Shown here: positions 935 through 37,143 of the stretch, piece by piece
Numbering within the stretch: position 1 is the stretch's first letter
Layout: every line of letters starts with the position of its first letter
Virus record (IMG/VR): IMGVR_UViG_2778261538_000002
Length of the DNA: 38,253 bases
Source of the DNA: a virus
Lineage: Duplodnaviria > Heunggongvirae > Uroviricota > Caudoviricetes
Direction: 5' to 3' (one strand)
Made by a program: the position numbers and the translations under genes
Notes under the pieces: generated by a model
What the model saw: the letters and a program-made list of their open reading frames with translations, nothing else
Told to the model about the DNA's origin: nothing
Databases searched by the model: none

Positions 935-2620
935 GTGAATATAAACGTCGCCGAATTGTTAAATGGGAATTACATTCTGTTATTATTTGTGGTCCTCGCG
1001 CTTGGGCTATGTCTCGGGAAATTACGACTTGGTTCGATCCAACTGGGTAATTCCATTGGCGTTTTAGTCGTATCGCTGTTATTAGGCCAACAACATTTCA
1101 GCATTAACACCGACGCGCTTAATCTTGGCTTTATGCTGTTTATTTTCTGCGTCGGGGTCGAAGCCGGACCGAACTTTTTTTCCATTTTTTTTCGCGATGG
1201 GAAAAATTACCTAATGTTAGCACTGGTGATGGTTGGCAGTGCGCTGGTGATCGCCTTAGGGTTAGGTAAGCTGTTTGGCTGGGATATTGGCCTGACGGCC
1301 GGTATGTTAGCTGGCTCTATGACGTCGACACCGGTTCTGGTCGGTGCTGGCGATACACTGCGTCATTCCGGCATGGAAAGCAGGCAGCTCTCACTGGCAC
1401 TGGATAATCTGAGCCTCGGGTATGCCTTAACCTATTTAATCGGTCTGGTGAGTTTGATTGTTGGTGCGCGTTACTTGCCGAAATTGCAGCATCAGGACTT
1501 ACAGACCAGCGCCCAGCAAATCGCCCGCGAACGTGGCCTGGACACTGATGCCAACCGTAAGGTTTATTTACCGGTGATCCGCGCCTACCGCGTCGGCCCG
1601 GAGCTGGTGGCCTGGACCGACGGCAAAAATCTGCGTGAACTGGGTATTTATCGACAAACTGGCTGCTACATTGAACGTATTCGACGTAACGGGATTCTGG
1701 CAAATCCAGACGGTGATGCGGTGCTACAAATGGGCGATGAAATAGCGTTGGTAGGCTATCCCGACGCCCACGCCCGACTCGATCCCAGCTTCCGTAACGG
1801 CAAAGAAGTTTTCGATCGTGACCTTCTCGACATGCGTATCGTCACTGAAGAAGTGGTCGTTAAAAACCATAACGCCGTTGGCAAACGTCTCGCACAACTG
1901 AAGTTGACCGATCACGGTTGCTTCCTTAACCGCGTCATTCGTAGCCAGATTGAGATGCCGATAGATGACAACGTCGTGCTTAACAAAGGTGACGTTTTAC
2001 AAGTCAGCGGCGATGCCCGTCGCGTAAAAACCATCGCCGATCGCATCGGCTTTATCTCGATTCACAGCCAGGTCACTGACTTGCTGGCATTCTGCGCCTT
2101 CTTTGTTATTGGGCTGATGATCGGGATGATCACCTTCCAGTTCAGCACATTCAGTTTCGGCATGGGGAACGCTGCCGGGTTGTTATTCGCCGGAATTATG
2201 CTGGGATTTATGCGCGCTAACCACCCGACCTTCGGTTACATTCCGCAGGGTGCATTAAGCATGGTGAAAGAGTTCGGCTTAATGGTGTTTATGGCAGGCG
2301 TTGGTCTGAGCGCCGGTAGCGGTATTAATAACGGCCTGGGCGCGATTGGCGGTCAGATGTTGATTGCCGGATTGATTGTCAGTCTTGTGCCAGTGGTTAT
2401 CTGTTTCTTGTTCGGTGCTTATGTATTGCGAATGAACCGCGCACTGTTGTTCGGCGCAATGATGGGCGCACGCACCTGCGCGCCGGCAATGGAGATCATC
2501 AGTGATACAGCTCGCAGTAACATCCCGGCGCTGGGCTATGCGGGCACCTATGCAATCGCCAACGTCCTGCTGACGCTGGCAGGGACAATCATCGTCATGG
2601 TATGGCCAGGATTAGGATAA
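935..2620 (+). CDS. ybjL: putative AAE-family transporter YbjL
   Basis: 561-aa polytopic membrane ORF with central soluble domains; GTG start at 935; matches my recollection of E. coli YbjL. Confidence 0.88.
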
Positions 2621-2855
2621 AACTGAAGTTGCCCTGAAAATGAAATTTTTTTGCACAACCGCAGAACTTTTCCGCAGGGCATCAGTCTTAATTAGTGCCA
2701 CTGCTTTTCTTTGATGTCCCCATTTTGTGGAGCCCATCAACCCCGCCATTTCGGTTCAAGGTTGATGGGTTTTTTGTTGCCTTAAATTTATGCCGTTTAA
2801 AATCATGATGTTAGAAGCACTGTTTTTTAACGATGGCGACAAAATGGCGGCAGCG
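2621..2855. other. host-prophage junction; attachment site expected here
   Basis: interval between the ybjL stop and the first phage gene (ogr); exact core repeat cannot be defined because the other att lies outside the window. Confidence 0.4.
2733..2776 (+). terminator. rho-independent terminator downstream of ybjL
   Basis: perfect 10-bp inverted repeat cccatcaacc/ggttgatggg (2733-2742 and 2760-2769) followed by TTTTTT; loop is long (17 nt). Confidence 0.5.
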
Positions 2856-3074
2856 TCAAAGAGAGAGCGCCACCTGTCCTGATTTCATTGGATGCGGCTG
2901 AACCGGATTTGACTCTTTTGGCGTTGCAATCGAACGAACAAAAGTTTCATGGGTAACAAAAGTATGGCTGCAGTTAATGTTCTGGCACTGGTTGTAACGC
3001 TCTTTGGTCAATGAAGATACCTGAAAACTGCTGCGAGTATGGGCGGCACTTCCACACAGTGGGCAAATCATCAT
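2856..3074 (-). CDS. ogr: late gene transcriptional activator (Ogr/Delta zinc-finger family)
   Basis: about 72 aa from the tandem Met; CPLCG...CQNINC four-Cys zinc finger and KERY motif as in P2 Ogr; sits next to gene D as in P2. Confidence 0.8.
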   Translation of the reverse strand: MMICPLCGSAAHTRSSFQVSSLTKERYNQCQNINCSHTFVTHETFVRSIATPKESNPVQPHPMKSGQVALSL

Positions 3075-3164
3075 TTTTCGAGTTCTCCCCATTTTTGCTA
3101 AATTCACAATAATGATACCGCATTATTCCATTTTGCAAACTTAAAAGTTCTCCATTGCGAAGAA

Positions 3165-4265
3165 TCATTCCATTTCGAAATCATCAATCCTCACTTCAAG
3201 TTCCAGACTGGTTGTAAAACCGTTATCCGGGCTGACGGTATGTGTCAGAGTCGTAATGGTCCATTCCGCATCATCTATCGGCTGTTTAAAGCCACTGACT
3301 TTCACAGGCATTTCCGTATAAAGATCTGCCCGTCCTTCTGCCAGTTGCAGCGAGAATGACGCAACGCCGCGTTGCAGGCGTTCCCACTGCATTTTTGCCG
3401 CTCGTTCGGCGTTGCTCCGGTTGGCATAAGTGCGATTAAGTACCAGCACGTTTTCATCCGTCCCCACCAGGTAATCGCCCTGCTTCGCTTCCGGCTCTTT
3501 CTTCTGCTTCTTGGTCCTGCGCTTACGCTTCACCGTTGTGTTTTCTTTCTTCGCGGGTTCACGGGTATGCAACCAGCTGGCAATGACGCCCGTGTAAGCT
3601 CCGCGATCCGCCAGGGTAAAGCGGTGACTGTCGCCGTCCTTACGTGTGATAGTGATCACCGGCAGAGGTTTACCGCTGGCACTTTTACCCTGACCCTGCA
3701 GGATGAATAACAGATTGCCATTTTTCACCGACGCAATAGCACCGTACTGGCGCGCCAGCCGCATCAGAAAACTGCCGTCACTCTCATTAGTCTGGTCTAT
3801 ATGATCCACGGGTTTATCAGACAGGTCTTTACCCAGTGCCATCTTCAGTTTGTGACGCGCAGCTATTTCCTTCACCACTTCCCCGACAGTGGTCTTGTGC
3901 CACGATTTTTCACGACGGGTATTCAGCGTTTCCCTAAAATCAGCACTTCGCGCCCGGATAGTCAGGCGATCCGGTGCGCCAGTGTGTTCAATCTCGTCCA
4001 CCGTGAATGCCCCTTTCGGGAAAAGCGGCTGCCCTTTCCAGCCCAGCGCCAGCGTAATAACCGCACCACGACGCGGCAGCACGATTTTTCCGTCGGCATC
4101 ATCCAGTTCCAGATCAAGCTGGTCCGCTTCAAAGCCCCGGTTATCCGTCAGCGTCAGCCCCATCAGGCGGTTGTCCAGCACAGTAGTGATATCTCTGCCC
4201 TCAATACTGATGCTGAATGCGGGAGTTTTGTTGCCTTTGTTAAGCAGTTCAGAGCTGAAATTCAC
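3165..4265 (-). CDS. D: tail protein D (late control gene D)
   Basis: 366-aa ORF, last gene of the tail operon, recognised as P2 gpD-like; stop of U abuts its start. Confidence 0.88.
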   Translation of the reverse strand: MNFSSELLNKGNKTPAFSISIEGRDITTVLDNRLMGLTLTDNRGFEADQLDLELDDADGKIVLPRRGAVITLALGWKGQPLFPKGAFTVDEIEHTGAPDRLTIRARSADFRETLNTRREKSWHKTTVGEVVKEIAARHKLKMALGKDLSDKPVDHIDQTNESDGSFLMRLARQYGAIASVKNGNLLFILQGQGKSASGKPLPVITITRKDGDSHRFTLADRGAYTGVIASWLHTREPAKKENTTVKRKRRTKKQKKEPEAKQGDYLVGTDENVLVLNRTYANRSNAERAAKMQWERLQRGVASFSLQLAEGRADLYTEMPVKVSGFKQPIDDAEWTITTLTHTVSPDNGFTTSLELEVRIDDFEME

Positions 4266-10002: not shown

Positions 10003-10029
10003 AGTGGCGAACCTCCTGATTGGATTAGG

Positions 10030-10095
10030 CTTCGCCCTATATTGAAGTGATTGTGCCTGACAAACAGCTAAGCGCAGTTGTACCGTTATTCACAC
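10030..10095 (-). promoter_or_regulatory. putative Ogr-dependent late promoter for the FI operon
   Basis: TGT-N12-ACA dyad at 10078-10095, about 80-90 nt upstream of the FI start, as in P2 late promoters. Confidence 0.45.
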
Positions 10096-10252
10096 AAAAT
10101 GACGGTATTTGTCCGCTTCCAGAAAAAATCAAAATAATGCTGATTCAGGGCGATTCATTGCTCTTATTTGCCGGAAATTTTCTATACATGGCCAGATTAT
10201 CTGGATGCGCTTGAGGTGGTAGATACGACCATCGCACCAGATATCAAATGGC

Positions 10253-10684
10253 CTACACCTCCGGCTTCGGTGGAAAGGTAATGTCAGGCGCGGTACTGGT
10301 ATCGACTTTAGTCAGTTTGTAGCGGTACCGCTGCCATTCAGCCAGACGTGGCACGTCAACATCGTCGATGTAGCCTCCTGCCTGAGCATCTGCCAGTGGG
10401 GCGATAATCGCCGTTGCCTCCGCCAGTAATGCTGATTTCTGAAAGTCCGCAGCGATAATTTGTTCTTTTTTAGATGGTGGCTGTACATCTATCCATGATG
10501 GTTTCCCATTAACATCCGGGCCGCGAGTTTTGCCTTCTGGCGGTGTGCCGCTATATTCCGTAAAAATATCTTCGTCAACATCCACCCCATTTTCAGGCCA
10601 TGCATTAACTCGCGTGTAATCATCAAATAATGCCCAGGGATAAAAAGAATTTGTCTCGCCAGAATATCTGTATTTCATTATCAA
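10253..10684 (-). CDS. G: tail fiber assembly protein
   Basis: 143-aa ORF overlapping the 3' end of the tail fiber gene; Tfa-like C-terminus. Confidence 0.8.
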   Translation of the reverse strand: MIMKYRYSGETNSFYPWALFDDYTRVNAWPENGVDVDEDIFTEYSGTPPEGKTRGPDVNGKPSWIDVQPPSKKEQIIAADFQKSALLAEATAIIAPLADAQAGGYIDDVDVPRLAEWQRYRYKLTKVDTSTAPDITFPPKPEV

Positions 10685-13587: not shown

Positions 13588-13933
13588 TCTCTGCTCCTGT
13601 TGATACGGAAAGGGAAACAGGCACACCGTTATTCCGCCGCCCGGTCAGCTCCACCACCATTGAACCGTCAAAATTGCTGTTGATGGTGATGGAATCCAGC
13701 GTCAGCCGTGGCTCCCAGCGACTCAGCGCGACATACACTGCCGACATGACCTGCAGGCGTAACGCCGGATTTTGTGGCTGGTCTATCAGTGCCGACAGCA
13801 GGGAACCATATTCACGACGGGCAATGCGGCTACCCTGCGGTGTCAGCAGAATGTCCCGCACCGACTGGCGCAGATGGTCAATATCAGTAATAGCTTTACC
13901 GCTGGTATTGTTCATCCCGCTATAAAGCGTCAT
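13574..13933 (-). CDS. W: baseplate wedge protein W
   Basis: 119-aa ORF; P2 gpW-like. Confidence 0.85.
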   Translation of the reverse strand: MTLYSGMNNTSGKAITDIDHLRQSVRDILLTPQGSRIARREYGSLLSALIDQPQNPALRLQVMSAVYVALSRWEPRLTLDSITINSNFDGSMVVELTGRRNNGVPVSLSVSTGAENGSD

Positions 13934-14508
13934 ACCGGTCCTCCGGTTGTATCGCCGCCTTTCAGGACGCCAGTATGCTGATGCGCATCAACCACGATCC
14001 CGTTAGAACTCATTGCACCGCCGCCCTGGGTAACACCACCATTGATCACCACTTCGCTGTTAATTCGCGTGCGGTCAGCCTCCAGCACAAACTCACTGGT
14101 TTTCAGGGTGATATTGTCAGCGGCCTCAATGACCATGGATTTGATGCCTCTGACATACCAGCGCCCGGTAGCGGGTTCGTATTCAAACCAGCCACCGTCC
14201 GGGTACTCAACCACGTTGCCGTCCTCAGAGTCTGAAGGTGGCGGAAACTGATTTGAGTAGACGGCAGGCAGGGCAAACGCGGTTTCCAGATTGCCGCCCA
14301 GGCTGAACAGCACAACCTGCTCGCCCACAGACGGTTTCCACCAGGTGCGCGATTTGCCCGCGCGCAGTGTCAGCCAGTTAATCCAGTTGGTTTCAAGGTC
14401 GCCCGTTTTCACCCGACACAGCCAGTTTGCCCTGTCCACTTCGGTGACTACACCTGTGCGGATCAGGTTGGTGATAAGGCGCATGATTTCGGTAAGTTGT
14501 GCATTCAT
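13930..14508 (-). CDS. V: baseplate spike protein V
   Basis: ORF 13930-14586 trimmed to Met27 (MNAQLTEIMRLI), which matches the gpV N-terminus; ATG read at 14506-14508. Confidence 0.85.
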   Translation of the reverse strand: MNAQLTEIMRLITNLIRTGVVTEVDRANWLCRVKTGDLETNWINWLTLRAGKSRTWWKPSVGEQVVLFSLGGNLETAFALPAVYSNQFPPPSDSEDGNVVEYPDGGWFEYEPATGRWYVRGIKSMVIEAADNITLKTSEFVLEADRTRINSEVVINGGVTQGGGAMSSNGIVVDAHQHTGVLKGGDTTGGPV

Positions 14509-14556
14509 GAGAGCGATCCTTGCACAACCGGGTAGAGTGATGTAATACAGAGCGTA

Positions 14557-14574
14557 TGTATGGAGAACCACACA
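14557..14574. promoter_or_regulatory. TGT-N12-ACA dyad (candidate Ogr box) between V and the divergent cargo gene
   Basis: TGTATGGAGAACCACACA read directly; could serve the V operon late promoter or the cargo gene. Confidence 0.35.
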
Positions 14575-14603
14575 AAAGAGAAACAATTTCTAAGGTATTT
14601 AAG

Positions 14604-15470
14604 ATGACACAAATCGCAATTTATGGATTTAATTTTACTAAAAAAATCACATTTGACGGTGGTGAGTTAACTCCTATTTTCAGTTCATGGAGTGAGTTAA
14701 AAAAAAATGGCTGGGCTAATGATAGGTACATCCTCACTGGTTTTTTCAAACCAAACTCGAATAACTACGCCACTCAACAGCAGCTTATTTTTGATTTACA
14801 AGCAGTCCTTAGTTTTATTGAACAAAAAAATGTAATCATTTCAGGAGAACTTGAAAATGATGAAACCCCTTTCAATTTCAAACCATCTCTACCCAAAAAG
14901 CTTGACAAAAAACGAGATAAGGGTGCGGGCATTATCATCATGGAAGATTATTTTGCACCAAACAGCCGAGAAAATTTTATTTGCTTAGCCATGGAAAAAC
15001 TAAATAGTAAAGCCATGCTAAAACAAGATGCCTTTAGAACATCATTTTTTAAATCAATGCTAGCTTTCCGCGACTCAATAAATTATATCGACGTCAGATA
15101 TTATTTATTATTCTCGGCACTAGAAGCACTTTGCAGATTTATTAAAAATGACTACTCCCCTGCCAAAACACCACAAATAATCACTCAGGTTTTAAAAGAA
15201 TATGGTTTTAATGTCGAAAAAACAGGACATACATTAGCTCAAAGAAACATTATGCATTACTGCAAACTCCGTCACTCGCTGTTCCACAATGGTAAATACA
15301 TTGCCTATCTTGATGAAAAAAACTCAGATGGCAAAATTGAAATTCAAGATTACTCATCAAATTTGAATTTACTGGTGCCACTTGTACTAATGAAATTCAT
15401 AGGATTTGATGACAATTATATAAACTGGGACTCATGGATTGATAGGAATCCATTTATCAGTAAAAAGTAA
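14604..15470 (+). CDS. hypothetical protein, AT-rich cargo gene at the P2 orf30 position
   Basis: 288 aa from Met17 of ORF 14556-15470 (AAGG RBS 8 nt upstream); opposite strand to the flanking tail genes V and S; Lys/Asn-rich composition unlike the neighbours; no motif I recognise. Confidence 0.7.
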   Translation: MTQIAIYGFNFTKKITFDGGELTPIFSSWSELKKNGWANDRYILTGFFKPNSNNYATQQQLIFDLQAVLSFIEQKNVIISGELENDETPFNFKPSLPKKLDKKRDKGAGIIIMEDYFAPNSRENFICLAMEKLNSKAMLKQDAFRTSFFKSMLAFRDSINYIDVRYYLLFSALEALCRFIKNDYSPAKTPQIITQVLKEYGFNVEKTGHTLAQRNIMHYCKLRHSLFHNGKYIAYLDEKNSDGKIEIQDYSSNLNLLVPLVLMKFIGFDDNYINWDSWIDRNPFISKK

Positions 15471-15496
15471 ACTAAATTTTATAAATGTGGTTTTAT

Positions 15497-15943
15497 TTAT
15501 CTCTGTAACCAATTTAGCAAAGCATCCTGAATGACAGTTTCCACATCATCATTTACGCCTAGGAGACGACGCTCTGCGTAACGGACCTCCGGTCCTCTTC
15601 GACTGATGCGATCACGCAGGCCGTAGTGATGAACGCGGGCAATGCGCTGCACCTTGCCTTCAAACTGCACGCTGGCAGAATCGGCGCTGGCGGCAGTTTT
15701 CAGGTATTTTGTGGTTCGCAGCTTTGCAAACATCTGACGTTTGATGCGCCCCTTTTTACTGCGTGCTGTTACCCGTCGCGGTTCATAACTACTGCCATCT
15801 GGATTGCGTTGCATCCTGATGTTCTGCTGCTGTATCCGGCGCAGTTCCTGCGCCAGCTGGCGCATCATGCGGCTTCTTGCGGCTGGCTCCAGATTCGCCA
15901 GCAAGGCACTCAGCCAGTCGTCCACTTTCTGCAGTTCAGCCAC
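15497..15943 (-). CDS. S: tail completion protein S
   Basis: 148-aa ORF; P2 gpS-like. Confidence 0.85.
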   Translation of the reverse strand: MAELQKVDDWLSALLANLEPAARSRMMRQLAQELRRIQQQNIRMQRNPDGSSYEPRRVTARSKKGRIKRQMFAKLRTTKYLKTAASADSASVQFEGKVQRIARVHHYGLRDRISRRGPEVRYAERRLLGVNDDVETVIQDALLNWLQR

Positions 15944-21304: not shown

Positions 21305-21445
21305 GAGCCGTGCTCCGTTAGAAAAACTTACTGGAGCCTTATGGTTGCGGTGATGGGGGCAGTGAAACAATGCGCGGTATTTGTACCGACAACCACACAA
21401 ACCGCAGGCGGGGAAAGCCTTCATTCAAGGCTGTAGGTTTGTGCC
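21305..21445. promoter_or_regulatory. divergent late promoter region between O and P
   Basis: 141-bp interval between divergently transcribed capsid (O) and terminase (P) operons, as in P2. Confidence 0.45.
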
Positions 21446-23212
21446 ATGAACACCACACTGACACCCGCAGATCTCGATCCCCGTCGGCAGGCCATGCTGC
21501 TGTACTTTCAGGGATACCGCGTAGCCCGCATTGCTGAAATGCTGGGCGAAAAAGTTGCAACCGTTCACAGCTGGAAGAAACGCGACAAGTGGGGTGACTA
21601 TGGGCCGCTGGATCAGATGCAGCTCACCACCGCCGCACGTTACTGCCAGCTCATTATGAAGGAGCACAAAGAAGGGAAAGATTTCAAAGAAATTGACCTG
21701 CTGGCGCGGCAGTCGGAGCGCCACGCGCGGATCGGCAAGTTTAACAATGGCGGCAACGAAGCCGACTTAAACCCTAACGTCGCCAACCGCAACAAAGGCC
21801 CGCGTCGTCAGCCGGAAAAGAACGTTTTCACCGATGAACAGATTGAAAAGCTGGAAGAAATCTTCCATTCCTCCATGTTCAACTACCAGCGCCACTGGTG
21901 GGAAGCCGGAAAAACCAACCGCATCCGCAACCTGTTGAAGTCACGCCAGATCGGCGCGACCTTCTATTTTGCCCGTGAAGCCCTGATTGACGCTCTGCTG
22001 ACTGGACGTAACCAGATTTTCCTTTCCGCAAGCAAGGCACAGGCCCACGTCTTTAAGCAGTACATCATCGACTTCGCCAAAGAAGTGGAGGTGGAGCTGA
22101 AAGGTGATCCGATGGTGCTTCCCAACGGGGCCACGCTTTACTTCCTCGGCACCAATGCCCGCACGGCCCAGAGTTATCACGGCAACCTGTATCTGGATGA
22201 ATATTTCTGGATACCGAAATTCCAGGAGCTGCGCAAAGTGGCTTCCGGTATGGCTATTCACAAGAAATGGCGACAGACCTATTTTTCCACGCCATCCAGT
22301 CTGACACACAGTGCTTATCCGTTCTGGTCCGGTGCGCTGTTCAACCGTGGGCGCAACAAAGCCGATAAGGTGGACATCGACCTGTCCCACAGCAATCTGG
22401 CCCCCGGCCTGCTGTGCGCAGACGGGCAATACCGCCAGATAGTCACCGTGGAAGATGCGGTGCGCGGCGGCTGTAACCTGTTCGACCTTGACCAGTTGCG
22501 CATGGAGTACAGCCCGGACGAATACCAGAACCTGCTGATGTGCGAGTTCGTGGACGATCTCGCGTCCGTGTTCCCGCTCAGCGAGCTGCAGGCGTGCATG
22601 GTGGACAGCTGGGAAGTCTGGACCGACTTTCATGCACTGGCCCTGCGCCCGTTTGGCTGGCGCGAAGTATGGATCGGCTATGACCCGGCAAAAGGCACGC
22701 AGAACGGCGACAGCGCCGGATGCGTGGTGGTGGCACCGCCAGCCGTACCGGGCGGCAAATTCCGCATTCTTGAGCGGCACCAGTGGCGCGGGATGGACTT
22801 CCGCGCCCAGGCTGACGCCATCAAAAAACTGACACAGCAGTACAACGTGACCTATATCGGCATTGACTCGACCGGCGTCGGTCACGGGGTTTATGAGAAC
22901 GTGAAAGCGTTCTTTCCTGCCGTCCGGGAGTTTGTCTACAACCCCAATGTTAAAAACGCCCTGGTACTCAAGGCCTACGACATTATCAGCCACCGCCGTC
23001 TGGAGTTTGACGCCGGACACACCGACATTGCGCAGTCATTTATGGCAATCCGTCGTGCCACCACCGCCAGTGGCAACCGCCCGACCTATGAAGCCAGCCG
23101 CAGCGAAGAAGCCAGTCACGCCGATCTGGCCTGGGCAACGATGCACGCACTGTTTAATGAACCGCTGCAGGGCGAGTCCGCCAATACCAGCAATATTGTG
23201 GAGATTTTTTGA
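21446..23212 (+). CDS. P: terminase large (ATPase) subunit
   Basis: 588-aa ORF; P2 gpP-like. Confidence 0.9.
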   Translation: MNTTLTPADLDPRRQAMLLYFQGYRVARIAEMLGEKVATVHSWKKRDKWGDYGPLDQMQLTTAARYCQLIMKEHKEGKDFKEIDLLARQSERHARIGKFNNGGNEADLNPNVANRNKGPRRQPEKNVFTDEQIEKLEEIFHSSMFNYQRHWWEAGKTNRIRNLLKSRQIGATFYFAREALIDALLTGRNQIFLSASKAQAHVFKQYIIDFAKEVEVELKGDPMVLPNGATLYFLGTNARTAQSYHGNLYLDEYFWIPKFQELRKVASGMAIHKKWRQTYFSTPSSLTHSAYPFWSGALFNRGRNKADKVDIDLSHSNLAPGLLCADGQYRQIVTVEDAVRGGCNLFDLDQLRMEYSPDEYQNLLMCEFVDDLASVFPLSELQACMVDSWEVWTDFHALALRPFGWREVWIGYDPAKGTQNGDSAGCVVVAPPAVPGGKFRILERHQWRGMDFRAQADAIKKLTQQYNVTYIGIDSTGVGHGVYENVKAFFPAVREFVYNPNVKNALVLKAYDIISHRRLEFDAGHTDIAQSFMAIRRATTASGNRPTYEASRSEEASHADLAWATMHALFNEPLQGESANTSNIVEIF

Positions 23213-24266: not shown

Positions 24267-25346
24267 CTAACATTGTTTACATAAATCAGAAAAACTACCA
24301 CCGAAATAATACAGTGCAGATTTATCATTTAGTTCTTTAAAAACTTCACACGCACGCTGGTGTATCTCAATAGCACTAGATTTATTTCGTCCAATAATAA
24401 CAGTCTCTTTTTCAGTACTATCGCCATCCAGAAAAGTCTTCAAAAGAAAATTAATAATAAAGTCTTCCTTTGGGAAAGAATAACCTATAAAGATCAACAG
24501 ATCTGCTTGTCTCAACTGGGTAGAGGATTTCACAAAAGCTGTCTTAAAGTATTTATCCCCATAGTCTTGTTCATTTGAAGGCAAGATAATATTTGGAACA
24601 ACTTTTGCGTTCAATAATGAATCATAATCTATTTTAAAACCATCCCTTGCAGCAACAACCTCAAATCCTCCATTAAGCTTATACAAACCTATACCTTTAG
24701 GCTGAGGACACACTAATATATTATTATGATGCACAGGAAAACCCCGATTAACTGAACGTTCAGGGAATGCATGATGTAGCACTTTATCAATAACTATATC
24801 GTAGTTTGTTGTGACTACATCCAGTGCTGAAGCTTCCTGTAAACTCTTAAAGAAAGAAATAATATTCCTTTTATTCTGCCCAAATTTTGCAGTTTGACTT
24901 AGCTTTAAATCATTTGCCGGTATTTTTTTTGCAAACTTATTTTTTACATATAGTTTTACTTGTGCCTCAAACAACTCAAGCGTATGCCTATCAAGATACG
25001 ACGGCAATAAACTTGGATATCGCTTATAAACATCCAATGCATATTTAAAACTCTTGAAAACATTAGCTTTGTCATCTAAACCTGCATTAGCATCCGCCCA
25101 TTTAAATTTAAGACTGTCGAACAAAGAAAAAAAACCATACTCATCAATATTTTCTAATGCTTCGTCTTCAGAGATGGAAAAGACTTCATTACTCAATGGG
25201 TATTTGTCATCCCAGGCTTTAGAAAATCCTGCTCCGAGAAAAACACATACTCTTCGCTCTCTTATTTTTGATTTCAATGTGGCGAAGGATGTAATTTCTA
25301 AATTATTAGGTGTCAAAATATCACCATCATAAGCAAAGCTAGTCAT
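24267..25346 (-). CDS. SIR2-like domain protein (candidate NADase effector)
   Basis: 359 aa; RVCVFLGAGFS Rossmann motif near the N-terminus, TTNYD motif, His cluster (VLHH, PVHH) and IFIGYSFP motif, which I recognise as the SIR2_2 (PF13289-type) pattern; AT-rich; starts 14 nt after the ATPase stop. Confidence 0.7.
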   Translation of the reverse strand: MTSFAYDGDILTPNNLEITSFATLKSKIRERRVCVFLGAGFSKAWDDKYPLSNEVFSISEDEALENIDEYGFFSLFDSLKFKWADANAGLDDKANVFKSFKYALDVYKRYPSLLPSYLDRHTLELFEAQVKLYVKNKFAKKIPANDLKLSQTAKFGQNKRNIISFFKSLQEASALDVVTTNYDIVIDKVLHHAFPERSVNRGFPVHHNNILVCPQPKGIGLYKLNGGFEVVAARDGFKIDYDSLLNAKVVPNIILPSNEQDYGDKYFKTAFVKSSTQLRQADLLIFIGYSFPKEDFIINFLLKTFLDGDSTEKETVIIGRNKSSAIEIHQRACEVFKELNDKSALYYFGGSFSDLCKQC

Positions 25347-25359
25347 GTTTTTCTCACGC

Positions 25360-26589
25360 TTAGTTTTTTATATCAAGAAAAGCTGGAACTAATCCAAATT
25401 CGCCACGTAAATATTTGGCAGACACTTTAGCATCTTTCCTTACAGAAAATACCGTAGCATTAGTTATTATCGACGCTTTAGATGAATCCTTGACTATAAT
25501 ATTAAGCTCATCTCTTCTAAACACATCATCTAATAAAGGAATATTATGTGTAGACATAATAAACTGCACACCATTTTTACGGCAGGTTTTATCAAATATT
25601 TTTTTGATTAGTGCACTTGCCAAAGAATAGTGAATAGATGAATCTATTTCATCCACATAAAGTGTAAAATCATATTCACTAGCCCAAATCAATATTGCTA
25701 AAAATGTTAAAACATTTAGTGTGCCTTGGGAAAAAAATTCATCCCTACGGTCAGGGCCTATTCTAGTAAAATCACCATCATCATTTTTTATGAGATAAAC
25801 AAATTTATACTCATTATCTTCGCCAAATCTTACAAATTCAACTTTATCTATATGCAGCGGCGACTGAATAACCATTTCATTATAGGTATTTAAAATTCTT
25901 TGACCACTCTCATTTAATTTTTCATTTCCTTCCTCACCTGATAACTGGCGCTTAAGTTGTCCTTCAACAAATTTAAGACTTGGATTTTTGAATTTTTCAG
26001 AGTAATAAGGCAATTGTTTTAATGCCCAGCGTTGGGTTTCAACAAGAGCATCAATTTCTAAAGATTTTGCAAAAGTTACAACAGCTCCACTTTCTCTTAA
26101 GACAGGATTAATCAACGACTCGTATTTTTTTAAGTCGGGCTTTTTGAAAACCAACCCATTTTCATTGCGAATAAAAATACATTGTTCCCTTGCACTTTTT
26201 CTTATCGGTCTAATGTATAAATACTCATCTACAATAACTTCATTTAAAACTGACACACCATAACGGACGAAGTTTTTTTGCTCTTCATCAATCAGTATCG
26301 CTTCATAGGAAGTAGGTTTGTTACGACATTCCTTATTTAGAAGGAAAGGCATATGCAATTTGTGTAATGTGTCACTATGAATTGAATTTGCAAATTCAGT
26401 AATAGCATTTATTAATTGTGTTTTACCAACACCATTTCCGCCTATTAATGCGGCAAATCTGTTTACTCTTAAACCATTCGCTAATGTCACGATATGTTCA
26501 GGATGCTCATCCCCAATTGAGGAAGCAAAACTAAGAACCTGTCTTTCGCGAAAGCTCTTGTAATTTTCTAAACTGAATGCAACTAGCAT
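25360..26589 (-). CDS. ABC/AAA_15-21-type ATPase (candidate defense sensor)
   Basis: 409 aa; Walker A GGNGVGKT, Walker B LYVDEID, H-loop-like FIMSTHN; GAGGA RBS; AT-rich; no TOPRIM or coiled-coil evident. Confidence 0.75.
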   Translation of the reverse strand: MLVAFSLENYKSFRERQVLSFASSIGDEHPEHIVTLANGLRVNRFAALIGGNGVGKTQLINAITEFANSIHSDTLHKLHMPFLLNKECRNKPTSYEAILIDEEQKNFVRYGVSVLNEVIVDEYLYIRPIRKSAREQCIFIRNENGLVFKKPDLKKYESLINPVLRESGAVVTFAKSLEIDALVETQRWALKQLPYYSEKFKNPSLKFVEGQLKRQLSGEEGNEKLNESGQRILNTYNEMVIQSPLHIDKVEFVRFGEDNEYKFVYLIKNDDGDFTRIGPDRRDEFFSQGTLNVLTFLAILIWASEYDFTLYVDEIDSSIHYSLASALIKKIFDKTCRKNGVQFIMSTHNIPLLDDVFRRDELNIIVKDSSKASIITNATVFSVRKDAKVSAKYLRGEFGLVPAFLDIKN

Positions 26590-33632: not shown

Positions 33633-34583
33633 ATGTCAACTCAAAAATTCACATTTCGCCATATCAAAGAGGATGCGAAAGCCATTGTTATGCAGAATCG
33701 TGGGGGACAGAAAGTCATTGAGCGAATACTCAAAGCTTATGGCTTCAAGTCACGCCAAGCGTTCTGTAACCATCTTGGTATTTCACAAAGTACGATGGCC
33801 AATAGATATGCTCGCGATACATTTCCTGCTGATTGGGTTGTTATATGCTCAATGGAAACAGGAGCATCTTTGGAATGGCTGGCGTTTGGTTCTGATGCGG
33901 CAGAAGAAATACTCTCAACTGCTCCAAATGGATACAACGAAGACGACCAGCGAGATGACGTTGAAAGTGACAATCATATACCTTCCTTTAATTTTCATAA
34001 TGATCATCAAGTCGATTTCAATCAGGGAGGAAAAGCGGCAATAGAACGGATAGTTAAGGCTTATGGCTTTAAAACTCGTCAAGCACTGGCAGATCATCTT
34101 GGTATATCAAAAAGTACATTAGCTACACGCTATATGCGTGACTCATTCCCTGCTGATTGGATAATACAGTGTGCCCTTGAAACTGGATTCTCATTGAAAT
34201 GGCTTGTTGATGGGCAAGGACTTAATAAAAGTTCACAAAATGAAAACATTGTGTGCATAAACAAGTACGTGCTTGCCGATGGTGCACTCGAAATGAAGGG
34301 TAACTACATTTTTGATAAGTCCTTTGTACCTAAGTCGATTAAAGATCCAATGTTAATATTTGATGGCAGCAGGATATACTTAGCTGAGGGGAACTTTGAC
34401 GAAATTAGCGATGGATTGTGGTTTGTTGAAATTGAAGGAAAAATCAGTGTTCGCGAGGTAATAAGAATACCGGTAGGTAAAGTAAGAGTAACGAGCTCAA
34501 ACTCAAATATTACTTTTGACTGTGCAATTAATGAACTCAAACCGGTTGCAAAATGCCAGTTCAACCTAATGACTATAATATAA
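33633..34583 (+). CDS. cI: CI-type immunity repressor with duplicated N-terminal HTH domain
   Basis: 316 aa; two tandem copies of a 186-CI-like HTH module (ERILKAYGFKSRQAF...HLGISQSTMANRY..FPADW and ERIVKAYGFKTRQAL...HLGISKSTLATRY..FPADW) plus a CI-like C-terminal domain. Confidence 0.8.
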   Translation: MSTQKFTFRHIKEDAKAIVMQNRGGQKVIERILKAYGFKSRQAFCNHLGISQSTMANRYARDTFPADWVVICSMETGASLEWLAFGSDAAEEILSTAPNGYNEDDQRDDVESDNHIPSFNFHNDHQVDFNQGGKAAIERIVKAYGFKTRQALADHLGISKSTLATRYMRDSFPADWIIQCALETGFSLKWLVDGQGLNKSSQNENIVCINKYVLADGALEMKGNYIFDKSFVPKSIKDPMLIFDGSRIYLAEGNFDEISDGLWFVEIEGKISVREVIRIPVGKVRVTSSNSNITFDCAINELKPVAKCQFNLMTII

Positions 34584-34614: not shown

Positions 34615-35733
34615 ATGTCTAGAAGTTTTGCTATTTGGGGATGCCGAAACTACGCTAAAGGCCCAGGAGAGGATTATAATGAGACTCAAGCAGATTTTAT
34701 AAACGAACTACACATCAACTTTTGGAATATCACATCCCAAAAATGCTATCATCTAGATTTTGGCATATCATTTTCTCGCCCCCAAGATAATGAAATTTCA
34801 GAACAGGGTGCAATCTGTTTATTTTTACCGTTTGTAAAAGAAAAAGATGACTTCATTGATTTAAGTACGAACCTAGATAGCAGCAAAGAACTGATCACCG
34901 CGGTTTTTAATGAATACGTCATAAATAAAGACTCAATAAACGAGAAACACTTATTATTAAATTTAACACGAAAAGGTAAACTAATAGTTAATACAAAACT
35001 TGATTTTCAAGGGGGGGCATTCGACAAAAGAATCACATTGAGAAAGAGGAATGATGGGACATATGTATTTTTCCATCTGCAGGATTGTTTGTCTAATTGC
35101 AATAATTGCAATTACTACATCAGATTCAGAATTAACCTAAATGAATCTGATGTTGAAGCAATTGTTAAAACATTCTATCCAAAAGATTTATTCTTAAAAA
35201 GCAATATTGAACGTTCTGATATTATAGATTTCAGAATTAACGAACAAAGAAATTTGCCAAACGAAGTCGCAACCACACTGGCCAGCGCCTCTTGCACTCC
35301 AAGCAAATATCATTTTTTCGTTATACGAGATATGGTTGACGAAGCATCGGCATCAGGTTCAAGCTATCAAGGTTGTCGTATTCTTGAATCAGAGACATGG
35401 AAAAAATACTTTTCAAATAATGTCAATTTTGGTAAGAACGATCCTATGATTTACCACTGGAAAGCTAAAAAGGATGATGGCGCACGGCTAGGTGACTTCT
35501 CTGTAGTAGTGAAGTTCAAGACTACTAAATCAAAAATTAGTAAAATATTTACATATATGTTCTATGCTGCAGCCATAGCATACATAATGAAATTTATTCC
35601 AACAGATGGTGTGCATAAAGACATTTATCTAATTTGCACCATTGCATTTATTGTAGCTTACATTGCCGCTCACTTTATTAAACCACAAAAATTATCCAAC
35701 TTTATTGCACTGGTGAAAAAATGGAAAAATTAA
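34615..35733 (+). CDS. hypothetical protein with C-terminal transmembrane helices (cargo gene 1)
   Basis: 372 aa; large soluble N-terminal region, two hydrophobic helices near the C-terminus; AT-rich; 32 nt after the cI stop. Confidence 0.7.
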   Translation: MSRSFAIWGCRNYAKGPGEDYNETQADFINELHINFWNITSQKCYHLDFGISFSRPQDNEISEQGAICLFLPFVKEKDDFIDLSTNLDSSKELITAVFNEYVINKDSINEKHLLLNLTRKGKLIVNTKLDFQGGAFDKRITLRKRNDGTYVFFHLQDCLSNCNNCNYYIRFRINLNESDVEAIVKTFYPKDLFLKSNIERSDIIDFRINEQRNLPNEVATTLASASCTPSKYHFFVIRDMVDEASASGSSYQGCRILESETWKKYFSNNVNFGKNDPMIYHWKAKKDDGARLGDFSVVVKFKTTKSKISKIFTYMFYAAAIAYIMKFIPTDGVHKDIYLICTIAFIVAYIAAHFIKPQKLSNFIALVKKWKN

Positions 35734-36800
35734 AACACATTCAGTTTAATGAAGTTAATTTTAACGATGTTTTTTTTGACTCCTTAAAAAAAGACTATCA
35801 ACATGGATTTATCGATTGGTTCAATAAAAAATGTAATTCTATCGAAGAAAAAGCTTATGTCTTATATAATGATGACAACACAATTGATGGTTTTTTATAC
35901 TTGAAAATTGAGCGTGGTATTATTGACGACGTAATACCACCTTTGACTCGTGCTAAACATCTAAAAATAGGCACATTTAAATTCAACCCGAAGGGGACTC
36001 TACGAGGACAAAGATTCCTCAAAAAGATTTTTGATCATGCACTAAAAGAAAAAGTAGATGATATCTATGTGACTGTTTTTGAAAAACATGATTATTTAAT
36101 TAGACTATTCAAAATTTATGGTTTTATTCATGTTGCTACAAAACAAACTGCTAATGGTAGTGAACAAGTCTTAGTAAGAGAGATGAATAAAAATCATCTT
36201 ACAGGGGATATTTTGTCTGATTATCCGTATATAAATAATAGCAACGATGAAAACAAATATCTGTTATCCATATATCCTGAATTCCATACAAAACTGTTTC
36301 CTGATTCGATACTCACCACAGAGTCCCCTGATATAATCACGGATGTATCTCATGCGAATAGCATTAGAAAAATATATATATGCAGAATGCATGACGTAAA
36401 AAAAATAAAAAGACATGACATTTTAGTTATTTACAGAACAAGTGACAAAGAAAACAGAGCGTATTATCGCTCTGTCGCAACGTCATTATGTGTAGTTGAA
36501 GATATTAGACATATTGATTCTTTTTATAGTGAAAAAGAATTCATACAGTATTGTACACGATACAGTGTATTCTCTGAAAATGAATTAAAAAAATCCTATC
36601 AAACAAAAAGATACCCTTACATTATTAGTTTTACATATAATCTAGCTTTACCTAAAAGAATAAACCGTGCTAAACTAATCAAAGAAATTGGTTTAAATCC
36701 TAAAAACCGTTGGGGTGTTGTTAAATTAACCGATGAGCAATTTGACGATATAATTAAACTTGGTGCTGTAGATGAAAGTATTATTGTCAATAAAACCTGA
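35721..36800 (+). CDS. hypothetical protein, N-terminal GNAT-like fold fused to an unknown C-terminal domain (cargo gene 2)
   Basis: 359 aa; N-terminal 150 aa have GNAT-like topology (…KIGTFKF…RGQRFLKKIF…YLIRLFKIYGF…); overlaps neighbouring genes at both ends. Confidence 0.65.
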   Translation: MEKLKHIQFNEVNFNDVFFDSLKKDYQHGFIDWFNKKCNSIEEKAYVLYNDDNTIDGFLYLKIERGIIDDVIPPLTRAKHLKIGTFKFNPKGTLRGQRFLKKIFDHALKEKVDDIYVTVFEKHDYLIRLFKIYGFIHVATKQTANGSEQVLVREMNKNHLTGDILSDYPYINNSNDENKYLLSIYPEFHTKLFPDSILTTESPDIITDVSHANSIRKIYICRMHDVKKIKRHDILVIYRTSDKENRAYYRSVATSLCVVEDIRHIDSFYSEKEFIQYCTRYSVFSENELKKSYQTKRYPYIISFTYNLALPKRINRAKLIKEIGLNPKNRWGVVKLTDEQFDDIIKLGAVDESIIVNKT

Positions 36801-37143
36801 ATTTGTTGAAAAAATCCTTAATGGGACGAAGAAGTTTGAATTCAGGAAAGGTATTTTTAAAAAACCGGATGTAAAATCTGTGGTTATTTATTCAACAATG
36901 CCTGTCGGTAAAGTTGTTGCTGAATTTGACATTGCAGATGTTATAGAAGATAAGCCGAGTATTGTATGGGAAAAAACAAGCCAATACGCAGGTATCAGTA
37001 AACAATTTTTTGACTCTTATTTTCATAGCAAAGAAAAAGCCTTTGCTATAGAAATTGGTAATCTAAAAATCTATGACCAACCACTTCATCTAAGTTCATT
37101 AGGTGATAACATAACGGCCCCGCAATCATATCGGTACTTATGA
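36772..37143 (+). CDS. ASCH-domain protein (cargo gene 3)
   Basis: 123 aa; MKVLLSIKPEFVEKILNGTKKFEFRK is a typical ASCH N-terminus. Confidence 0.7.
   Translation: MKVLLSIKPEFVEKILNGTKKFEFRKGIFKKPDVKSVVIYSTMPVGKVVAEFDIADVIEDKPSIVWEKTSQYAGISKQFFDSYFHSKEKAFAIEIGNLKIYDQPLHLSSLGDNITAPQSYRYL

Follow-up and report, generated by a model that had tools for sequence, protein, structure and literature searches.

A candidate single-protein HEPN defence gene at the S–V cargo site of a P2-like prophage of Escherichia coli

What is a solitary, AT-rich gene doing among the tail genes of a prophage, on the strand opposite to all of them? The window analysed here (the whole stretch of 38,253 nucleotides, IMG/VR record IMGVR_UViG_2778261538_000002) is a segment of the Escherichia coli chromosome with a P2/186-like prophage. 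Its ybjL flank is 99.7% identical to E. coli E2348/69, and the prophage begins just after the RybB sRNA gene (2700–2778) and ends in an integrase gene that is cut by the window end. From D (3165) to O (21424), the credible genes all lie on the minus strand except for one open reading frame (ORF) between the tail genes V and S. A reading made from the sequence alone had picked out this ORF as a lone plus-strand cargo gene in a minus-strand tail block, and it is indeed the sole credible plus-strand gene between D and O. That reading offered two ideas of its role, an exclusion or abortive-infection function or a late-expressed accessory protein.

The gene, its start and the dyad beside it

The elements of the locus are as follows.

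13930–14508, minus strand: gpV, the baseplate spike; left flank and conserved anchor of the variable site
14557–14574, minus strand: dyad TGTATGGAGAACCACACA, TGT-N12-ACA, Ogr-type activator site of the V-operon late promoter (P_V)
14578–15496, no strand assigned: AT-rich inserted segment, approximate, from the dyad to the S stop codon, without flanking repeats
14592–14595, plus strand: Shine-Dalgarno-like AAGG, 8 nt before ATG 14604, read from the sequence
14604–15470, plus strand: cargo coding sequence (CDS), 288 amino acids (aa) and stop; PHROG 4373, an uncharacterised family
15497–15943, minus strand: gpS, tail completion/virion morphogenesis; right flank, convergent with the cargo gene

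The cargo CDS is 867 bp long, with its start ATG at 14604 and its stop at 15470, and encodes 288 aa. The open frame itself reaches back to a first ATG at 14556, from which the ORF list gives 304 aa up to 15470. The sequence-only reading had combined a length of 288 aa with a start at 14556; the length holds, but the start does not, since 288 aa requires the ATG at 14604. This ATG is taken to be the real start because it is the one used by PGAP (E. coli CDS, 867 bp), by all aligned homologues and by the PHROG profile, in which protein residues 1–285 align to positions 1–283 of 283. The E. coli RefSeq entry WP_001579974.1 corresponds to the gene at 99.7% nucleotide identity.

Two further claims of that reading, an own ribosome-binding site and a base composition unlike that of the flanks, agree with what is found. 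The AAGG at 14592–14595 stands 8 nt upstream of the start, and TAAGG also precedes the homologue in a Klebsiella phage. The GC content of the ORF is 0.333 (GC3 0.308), compared to 0.560 for V and 0.546 for S (about 0.55 for the flanks) and about 0.51 for the prophage, and the ORF is one of only three AT-rich islands within the window. The insert amounts to little besides the single ORF, with 26–30 bp on either side; the spacer between the convergent cargo and S stop codons is 26 bp, and no hairpin was found in it. No tandem, direct or inverted repeats, and no IS-like repeat, were found in 14300–15700, and no Rfam family in the cargo region. Scans found no sigma-70-like promoter upstream of the ORF and no terminator upstream or downstream of it. 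Read by eye, TTGCAC-N17-TAATAC at 14520–14548 is at best a weak promoter candidate.

A late-promoter-like dyad had also been reported just upstream of the gene. The dyad is present at 14557–14574, but it belongs to P_V and not to the cargo gene. The pattern occurs nine times in the window against 10.2 expected, which is not above chance, so its significance rests on location and not on frequency. The centre of the dyad (14565.5) is 57 bp before the V ATG and 38.5 bp before the cargo ATG at 14604; in P2, 55.5 bp separate the centre of the counterpart pV activator site from the V transcription start downstream. An equivalent TGT-N12-ACA lies 46–49 nt before the V ATG in 14 IMG/VR loci that comprise empty sites and 11 cargo types, and P2 and other deposited relatives show a matching element in the alignment upstream of V. 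Because the distance to V is conserved with and without cargo, the dyad is assigned as the P_V activator site. Other matches to the pattern, upstream of FI (10079) and in the O–P divergent region (21382 and 21440), fall where P2 late promoters are expected.

As a late promoter of the cargo gene, the dyad was rejected: an activator site at −55 would place the transcription start at about 14620, inside the ORF. Late genes under Ogr/Delta have TGT-N12-ACA at about −55 from their own start, and the cargo gene does not. As far as can be seen, then, the dyad lies outside the gene’s own control, and the idea of a late-expressed accessory protein is left without support, the dyad being placed and oriented for V.

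The S–V site as a home for cargo

The sequence-only reading had compared the position of the gene to that of the non-essential orf30 of P2, and the P2 reference record bears this out: there, Orf30 (NP_046770; 9439–10224, annotated “nonessential”) is flanked by S and V and runs antisense to both. The layout of the S–V region of the window is that of S–orf30–V in P2. The Orf30 start codon is 15 bp from the feature annotated as “activator binding site; activation of pV promoter” (10239–10266), and the record has transcription of the V operon beginning with base one of the V CDS. The two loci are alike in site, in being antisense to S and V, in having the start codon beside the pV activator site, in AT richness and in dispensability, but the proteins they encode are unrelated. 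Homology to P2 Orf30 was rejected (hhalign probability 0.2%), a tblastn search of phages with the cargo ORF did not retrieve P2, and P2 Orf30 has no Pfam match. Judged by these sequence comparisons, the cargo gene is a positional analogue only of orf30. The orf30 position, together with TO and Z, is one of three long-known regions of horizontally acquired genes in P2-like phages (PMC3091744); the source for orf30 as a variable site, as cited in that paper, is Nilsson and Haggard-Ljungquist 2007.

How variable the site is can be seen from a survey of 80 IMG/VR contigs with a gpV identity of at least 91%. Both flanks were found in 79; the site is empty in 55 of these (gap of 50–99 bp) and occupied in 24. 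S and V are adjacent in most deposited relatives as well. Among the occupied sites, at least 11 types of cargo can be told apart, each with a GC content of 0.32–0.37 and all but one antisense to S and V, and the window’s gene accounts for three of the 24. A structural tail or baseplate gene of P2 would be expected to be present throughout P2-like phages, and this gene is not. With the site empty in so many relatives, and with no homologues conserved there as a tail or assembly component, the evidence favours cargo, as had been proposed. The gene is a moron-type gene of foreign origin, horizontally acquired, at the S–V (orf30) site.

The recognisable cargo in sister phages belongs to defence. 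By PADLOC, the S–V site of these phages carries PARIS (AriA, 7.7e-39; AriB, 2.2e-24), a SIR2 protein that is LmuA/ThsA-like (1e-20), PDC-S15 (8.5e-32) and a DUF262 protein that is NsnA/PD-T4-2_A-like (3.3e-23). Known systems thus occur at the same flanked site in relatives; the site is rich in defence genes and deserves treatment as a defence hotspot. The remaining cargo consists of DUF6216 and other membrane proteins, as well as two proteins with Rx4H-like motifs, L045 (481 aa) and L079 (393 aa). Homology of these two to the family of the window’s protein was rejected, the matches to the family profile being not significant. Most S–V cargo types have no assigned function, so guilt by association is only partial. 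As a named defence hotspot, S–V is absent from the surveys of Rousset 2022, Vassallo 2022, Egorov 2024 and NAR 2026. Seven P2-borne PD systems are described, four at the gpA–portal site, three at fun (Z) and none at S–V (PMC9519451).

In empty sites, the S stop codon abuts the dyad, and cargo inserts between the two, without repeats flanking the insert. The final codons of S vary by cargo type, and so does the stretch from the dyad to the V ATG. Since both track the cargo, the module that is exchanged seems to extend from the S 3′ end to the P_V core.

Family, fold and catalytic motifs of the cargo protein

At least six alleles of the family occupy the S–V site of P2-like prophages in the same orientation, at 28–100% identity to the window protein. 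They include the following.

E. coli DSM 103246: the window allele, 99.7% nucleotide identity
Klebsiella phage ST437-OXA245phi4.1: S–V allele, 57% identity to the window protein
E. coli: S–V allele, 55% identity
Salmonella phage RE-2010: S–V allele, 35% identity
E. coli (another): S–V allele, 32% identity
Salmonella: S–V allele, 28% identity

For ST437-OXA245phi4.1 and RE-2010, the two phages compared in this way, the V and S proteins on either side are 74–86% identical. The exact window protein is found on 909 E. coli contigs, and near-identical members of its cluster occur in Salmonella and Citrobacter. In two E. coli genomes, the family gene is split by IS1.

The family as a whole, mostly from Gammaproteobacteria, is small and well delimited and comprises 118 clusters at 90% identity. 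An HMM search of 1.84 billion representative proteins returned 194 family representatives (50%-identity clusters), only the family itself and no domain fusions. Among the 150 listed of these 194, the full-length ones are almost all about 263–330 aa long, with the same architecture in essentially all.

Relatives are also found outside P2-like phages. In Halomonas, a relative 42% identical is the first integron cassette beside an IntI-like gene; the sequence at its cassette boundary, G|TTAGAAC, agrees with the R″ site of its own attC, GTTCTAAC, and the cassette that follows is built alike. An Acinetobacter relative is a lone gene between housekeeping genes, one on a metagenomic contig sits beside toxin–antitoxin modules, a Vibrio relative shares its island with an integrase and a resolvase, and a Klebsiella relative is at the edge of another element. 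The family gene is solitary in every context examined, and no neighbour gene is conserved in the roughly ten that were looked at.

Database searches name the protein no further. Pfam, NCBIfam and PADLOC gave no match to the window protein at E up to 1, including the PD-* models of PADLOC; the sole match in PHROGs is PHROG 4373, of “unknown function”; and no literature citing WP_001579974.1 was found. A sequence search of solved structures returned a single match, to 2p1a (E 0.022) in the beta-rich N-terminal domain; it is borderline and probably spurious. The AlphaFold2 model, built from a 39-sequence alignment, has a pLDDT of 89.9 and a pTM of 0.89. Foldseek found nothing significant with it in the PDB or in BFVD; Csm6/Csx1 recur among the non-significant matches. 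The features of the modelled protein, on the coordinates of the window, are these.

14604–14957, plus strand: N-terminal alpha/beta domain, about residues 1–118, six strands and three helices
15021–15467, plus strand: C-terminal HEPN-like helical domain, about residues 140–288
15123–15137, plus strand: E174-x3-R178 (EALCR), the second HEPN motif Ex3[KR], in helix 162–181
15270–15287, plus strand: R223-H-S-L-F-H228, the Rx4H catalytic motif of HEPN domains, closing helix 216–229

HEPN domains are recognised by an Rx4-6H motif that closes helix 3, in which the R is followed by a polar residue, and by an Ex3[KR] upstream of it (PMC3710099). Their bundle consists of two alpha-hairpins, and an insert often separates helices 2 and 3. 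The C-terminal domain has this fold, a four-helix up-down bundle, and carries both the Rx4-6H with its polar residue and the upstream Ex3[KR]. Among 110 full-length members that are 20–100% identical to the query (median 40%), E174, R178 and R223 are each present in 110 and H228 in 108 (98%), and position 224 is invariably polar (N, H, D or S). A beta-hairpin (233–246) is inserted right after the catalytic motif, a placement known from Csx1 (PMC3710099). In some relatives, the Pfam profile HEPN_Apea scores below threshold (best E 6.5e-4; 13.5 bits compared to a cut-off of 24.4), as in P0114, of which residues 217–273 align to profile positions 80–134. In UniRef, two members go under the name “Apea-like HEPN domain-containing protein.” The cargo protein very probably belongs to the HEPN superfamily. 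Its N-terminal domain, in which Y7, G8, P24, L44 and F71 are conserved, is proposed to be a sensor or regulatory domain.

Predicted function and the readings that compete with it

PADLOC models include ApeA, which Gao et al. are said to have described in 2020 as a single-protein HEPN defence. Identity of the cargo protein with ApeA was rejected: there is no PADLOC match at E up to 1 and no Pfam match, and the architecture differs. The likeness lies in a single polypeptide that is non-catalytic in its N-terminal part and has its HEPN domain at the C terminus, in the lack of a partner gene and in the weak, sub-threshold HEPN_Apea matches of the cargo family. In ApeA, the active site is on helix H3, and insertions surround the HEPN core, including one between H3 and H4 (bioRxiv 10.64898/2026.01.26.701840). 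Ec2ApeA has at least 583 residues and is predominantly alpha-helical (N-terminal 1–198, Mid 199–309, HEPN_ApeA 335–583), whereas the cargo protein, at 288 aa, is about half that size and has a beta-rich N-terminal domain of about 118 aa. DARNA (PD-T7-3), likewise a HEPN effector encoded by one gene, stays silent until infection, but its domain order is reversed, an N-terminal HEPN followed by a large helical C-terminal sensor of single-stranded DNA in a protein of 456 aa. In both ApeA and DARNA, a ligand derived from the infection switches on cleavage of tRNA anticodons (bioRxiv 10.64898/2026.01.26.701840; 10.64898/2026.02.22.705581).

Other known systems resemble the gene less. HepT of HepT–MntA (PDB 5yep, 7ae2, 8xdj) is a toxin of about 130–140 aa with an adjacent gene for an AMPylating MNT antitoxin, whereas the cargo gene has no such neighbour and encodes an extra N-terminal domain of about 120 aa. 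A type II/VII system of the HepT–MntA kind was rejected, there being no second ORF in the insert and no conserved neighbour in about ten contexts, and so was an AbiF/ToxIN-like type III system, for which neither repeats (14300–15700) nor an Rfam family were found. The Halomonas relative, being a cassette, can be set beside the BRiCs (bioRxiv 10.1101/2024.07.02.601719) and the “integron cassette HEPN” family (PDB 3jrt; PMC3710099). Compact single-gene defence cassettes are documented, and mobile, promoter-dependent ones often encode defence (bioRxiv 10.1101/2024.07.02.601719); HEPN integron cassettes are documented as well (PMC3710099). HEPN motifs are frequent among E. coli defence systems, many of them in prophages, P2-like ones included (PMC9519451).

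The reading preferred here, with a probability of roughly 0.55, is that the gene may encode an autoinhibited, prophage-borne HEPN RNase with a role in abortive infection or exclusion. The proposal is made by analogy with ApeA and DARNA. The gene would be transcribed at a low level in the lysogen, antisense to the late operons, and, being AT-rich, would probably be damped by H-NS. The protein would be kept inactive, with the N-terminal domain as sensor or autoinhibitor, until infection by another phage supplied the trigger. RNA would then be cut, without the need for metal, by a HEPN dimer whose active site is a composite of Rx4H and Ex3R, the most likely targets being tRNA anticodon loops or mRNA. 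Translation would stop and the infection would abort. The exclusion or abortive-infection idea of the sequence-only reading is thereby the best-supported one, given the HEPN fold and motifs, the solitary state of the gene and the defence systems at its site, with the function itself remaining a prediction.

Regulation by H-NS has a direct precedent at the S–V site. In the P2-like prophage of BL21-AI, three H-NS ChIP peaks occur, and one of them is a DUF6216 gene that is 99.5% identical to the commonest S–V cargo surveyed and that overlaps the gpS annotation; hns/stpA mutants derepress this gene. The proposal is weakest on expression, with no sigma-70 promoter found and no terminator before the convergent S. 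No antitoxin or other safeguard is visible for an RNase that is potentially toxic, and autoinhibition is assumed.

Of course, a HEPN RNase could also serve the phage that carries it, in lytic growth or against host immunity rather than in protection of the lysogen, for example by turnover of host mRNA or tRNA or by degradation of cyclic-oligonucleotide signals. The fold and the catalytic motifs fit such an enzyme equally well, a passage of review text states that HEPN proteins can deplete cyclic oligoadenylate signals, and the gene adjoins the Ogr-dependent P_V region, with no sigma-70 promoter detected. Yet the dyad fits V in both place and orientation, the gene stands apart from every late operon and runs antisense to them, and the recognisable S–V cargo is defence, not counter-defence. 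A lytic role would also make no sense for the relatives in an integron, in islands or as a chromosomal singleton, and an enzyme in the service of the phage is unlikely. The motifs bear just as directly on the thought that the protein is HEPN-like but non-catalytic (binding a ligand or nucleic acid), with some other role in lysogenic conversion, or that it resembles HEPN by coincidence. Non-catalytic HEPN domains typically lose the Rx4-6H (PMC3710099), and here R223, E174 and R178 are invariant, and H228 is kept in 98%, across 110 sequences otherwise only about 40% identical. The motif also lies at the end of predicted helix 3, as in true HEPN domains, which makes this explanation rather improbable.

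An addiction toxin that stabilises the prophage, paired with an unrecognised antitoxin in the form of a small protein or RNA, is quite improbable: no ORF, MNT gene or repeat array adjoins the gene, Rfam shows no RNA, and no partner is conserved across about ten contexts. Its location within the tail gene block could still suggest an accessory component of the tail or its assembly, but the gene is absent from 55 of the 79 phages with a gpV at least 91% identical, unrelated genes replace it elsewhere, the P2 equivalent is annotated as nonessential, and relatives occur outside phages. That the ORF is no real gene is contradicted by the 194 cluster representatives and the confident fold, and these last two possibilities are scarcely credible. 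The prophage-encoded HEPN RNase of abortive infection or exclusion is thus the reading carried forward, and the gene is a good candidate for a one-gene anti-phage defence with predicted RNase activity.

One could go further and see in the family a new, compact (about 285 aa) single-protein defence in which an undescribed N-terminal alpha/beta sensor gates a HEPN RNase, and in S–V a bona fide P2 defence hotspot where modules from the S 3′ end to P_V are exchanged. This combined claim is made tentatively, at not quite even odds. If confirmed, a very small and easily handled HEPN defence protein would join the infection-activated RNases ApeA and DARNA, and a new type of sensor domain would come with it. 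Confirmation would also draw attention to the P2 cargo site S–V, which already has PARIS, SIR2, PDC-S15 and DUF262 in a small sample; several of its proteins of unassigned function are natural candidates for screening. By itself, the gene is one more well-founded candidate among many and no conceptual surprise. Going by its sequence and predicted structure, it is a sound candidate for a single-protein HEPN defence variant, and its wide occurrence, on at least 900 E. coli contigs, means that it could affect the phage susceptibility of clinical and food isolates.

Cargo exchange at the S-V site and the V promoter

The site between the tail genes gpS and gpV holds a wide range of cargo in close relatives of this prophage, namely 80 IMG/VR contigs (L019-L098) with a gpV at least 91% identical. 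In most of these loci, the gap lies at about 2300-3500, just upstream of the V gene, and its contents include the following, with defence names taken from profile matches.

Cargo in the S-V gap of close relatives
L021, L096: PARIS
L027, L063: SIR2 protein, co-oriented with V
L070: PDC-S15
L025, L030, L062: DUF262 protein, 604 aa
L074 and eight loci whose insert is 860 bp long: DUF6216 membrane proteins
L060, L064, L067: other small membrane proteins
L045: unknown protein, 481 aa, with the Rx4H-like motif RNIIIH
L079: unknown protein, 393 aa, with the Rx4H-like motif RDKIAH

The core of the late promoter P_V, from the dyad to the ATG (some 100 nt upstream of the V ATG in the relatives; 14509-14574 in the window), varies with the type of cargo, as do the last codons of gpS in the same set of loci. 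Despite this variation in the core, the TGT-N12-ACA spacing is retained across cargo types in the relatives and the window. The cargo seems to be swapped as a module that comes with a V promoter variant of its own. Only about 10-35 nt separate the dyad from the cargo start codon, and therefore any promoter of the cargo must overlap P_V.

Further matches to the same dyad were found in the window, at the places expected for the remaining P2 late promoters:

10079-10096: upstream of the sheath gene FI
21382-21399: divergent O-P region
21440-21457: divergent O-P region

Together with the site at 14557-14574, these three probably make up the full Ogr regulon of the prophage.

Relatives of the cargo ORF in other loci

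The same ORF is present in E. coli strain 61 (NZ_CP048326.1; L014, 1501-3143), where IS1 interrupts it near codon 245, past the Rx4H motif, and the interruption recurs in strain 64. Truncated family members of 201-250 aa also occur in the protein database. In Halomonas (L004-L006, 6693-13481), the HEPN homologue sits in an integron-like array, in which a series of small same-strand genes runs divergently from an IntI-type integrase; besides the homologue, these genes encode a cupin, a DUF6998 protein, two acetyltransferases, and a Vgb lyase, and attC-like core sites occur at both of the cassette boundaries read. A 43%-identical homologue in Klebsiella (L015-L018, 3407-6157) is solitary, is preceded by about 1 kb of non-coding DNA, and has a resolvase/invertase as its neighbour. 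It sits at the border of another element, close to lysS-prfB, so the family docks at a different site here.

Integration site and further cargo of the prophage

On the left side, the prophage is directly adjoined by rybB and ybjL, and the phage appears to have integrated at or beside the 3' end of rybB. The landmarks and AT-rich islands are as follows:

935-2620, +: ybjL, left flank of the prophage
2700-2778, +: RybB sRNA gene (Rfam, 105 bits)
24267-26589, -: second AT-rich island, GC about 0.32
34615-37143, +: third AT-rich island, GC about 0.30-0.34
35721-36800, +: PDC-M11A (6.7e-139)
36772-37143, +: PDC-M11B/ASCH (1.7e-49)

The Z/fun hotspot, from FI to the tail-fibre assembly gene (10003-10252), appears to be empty, since the interval is just about 250 bp long. 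The second island lies between the portal gene Q and a replication gene, which is the old/tin "TO" hotspot. It encodes a 409-aa ABC/AAA ATPase, which matches AbiLi in PADLOC (2.1e-51) and AAA_21/AAA_15 in Pfam, together with a 359-aa SIR2_2 protein; the two are probably a two-gene defence system. The third island has a 186-type CI repressor (33633-34583) on one side and, on the other, the integrase, which spans 37222 to the end of the window; the island's 372-aa protein gave no match. With PDC-M11A/B in this island, the prophage therefore bears cargo at three separate hotspots.
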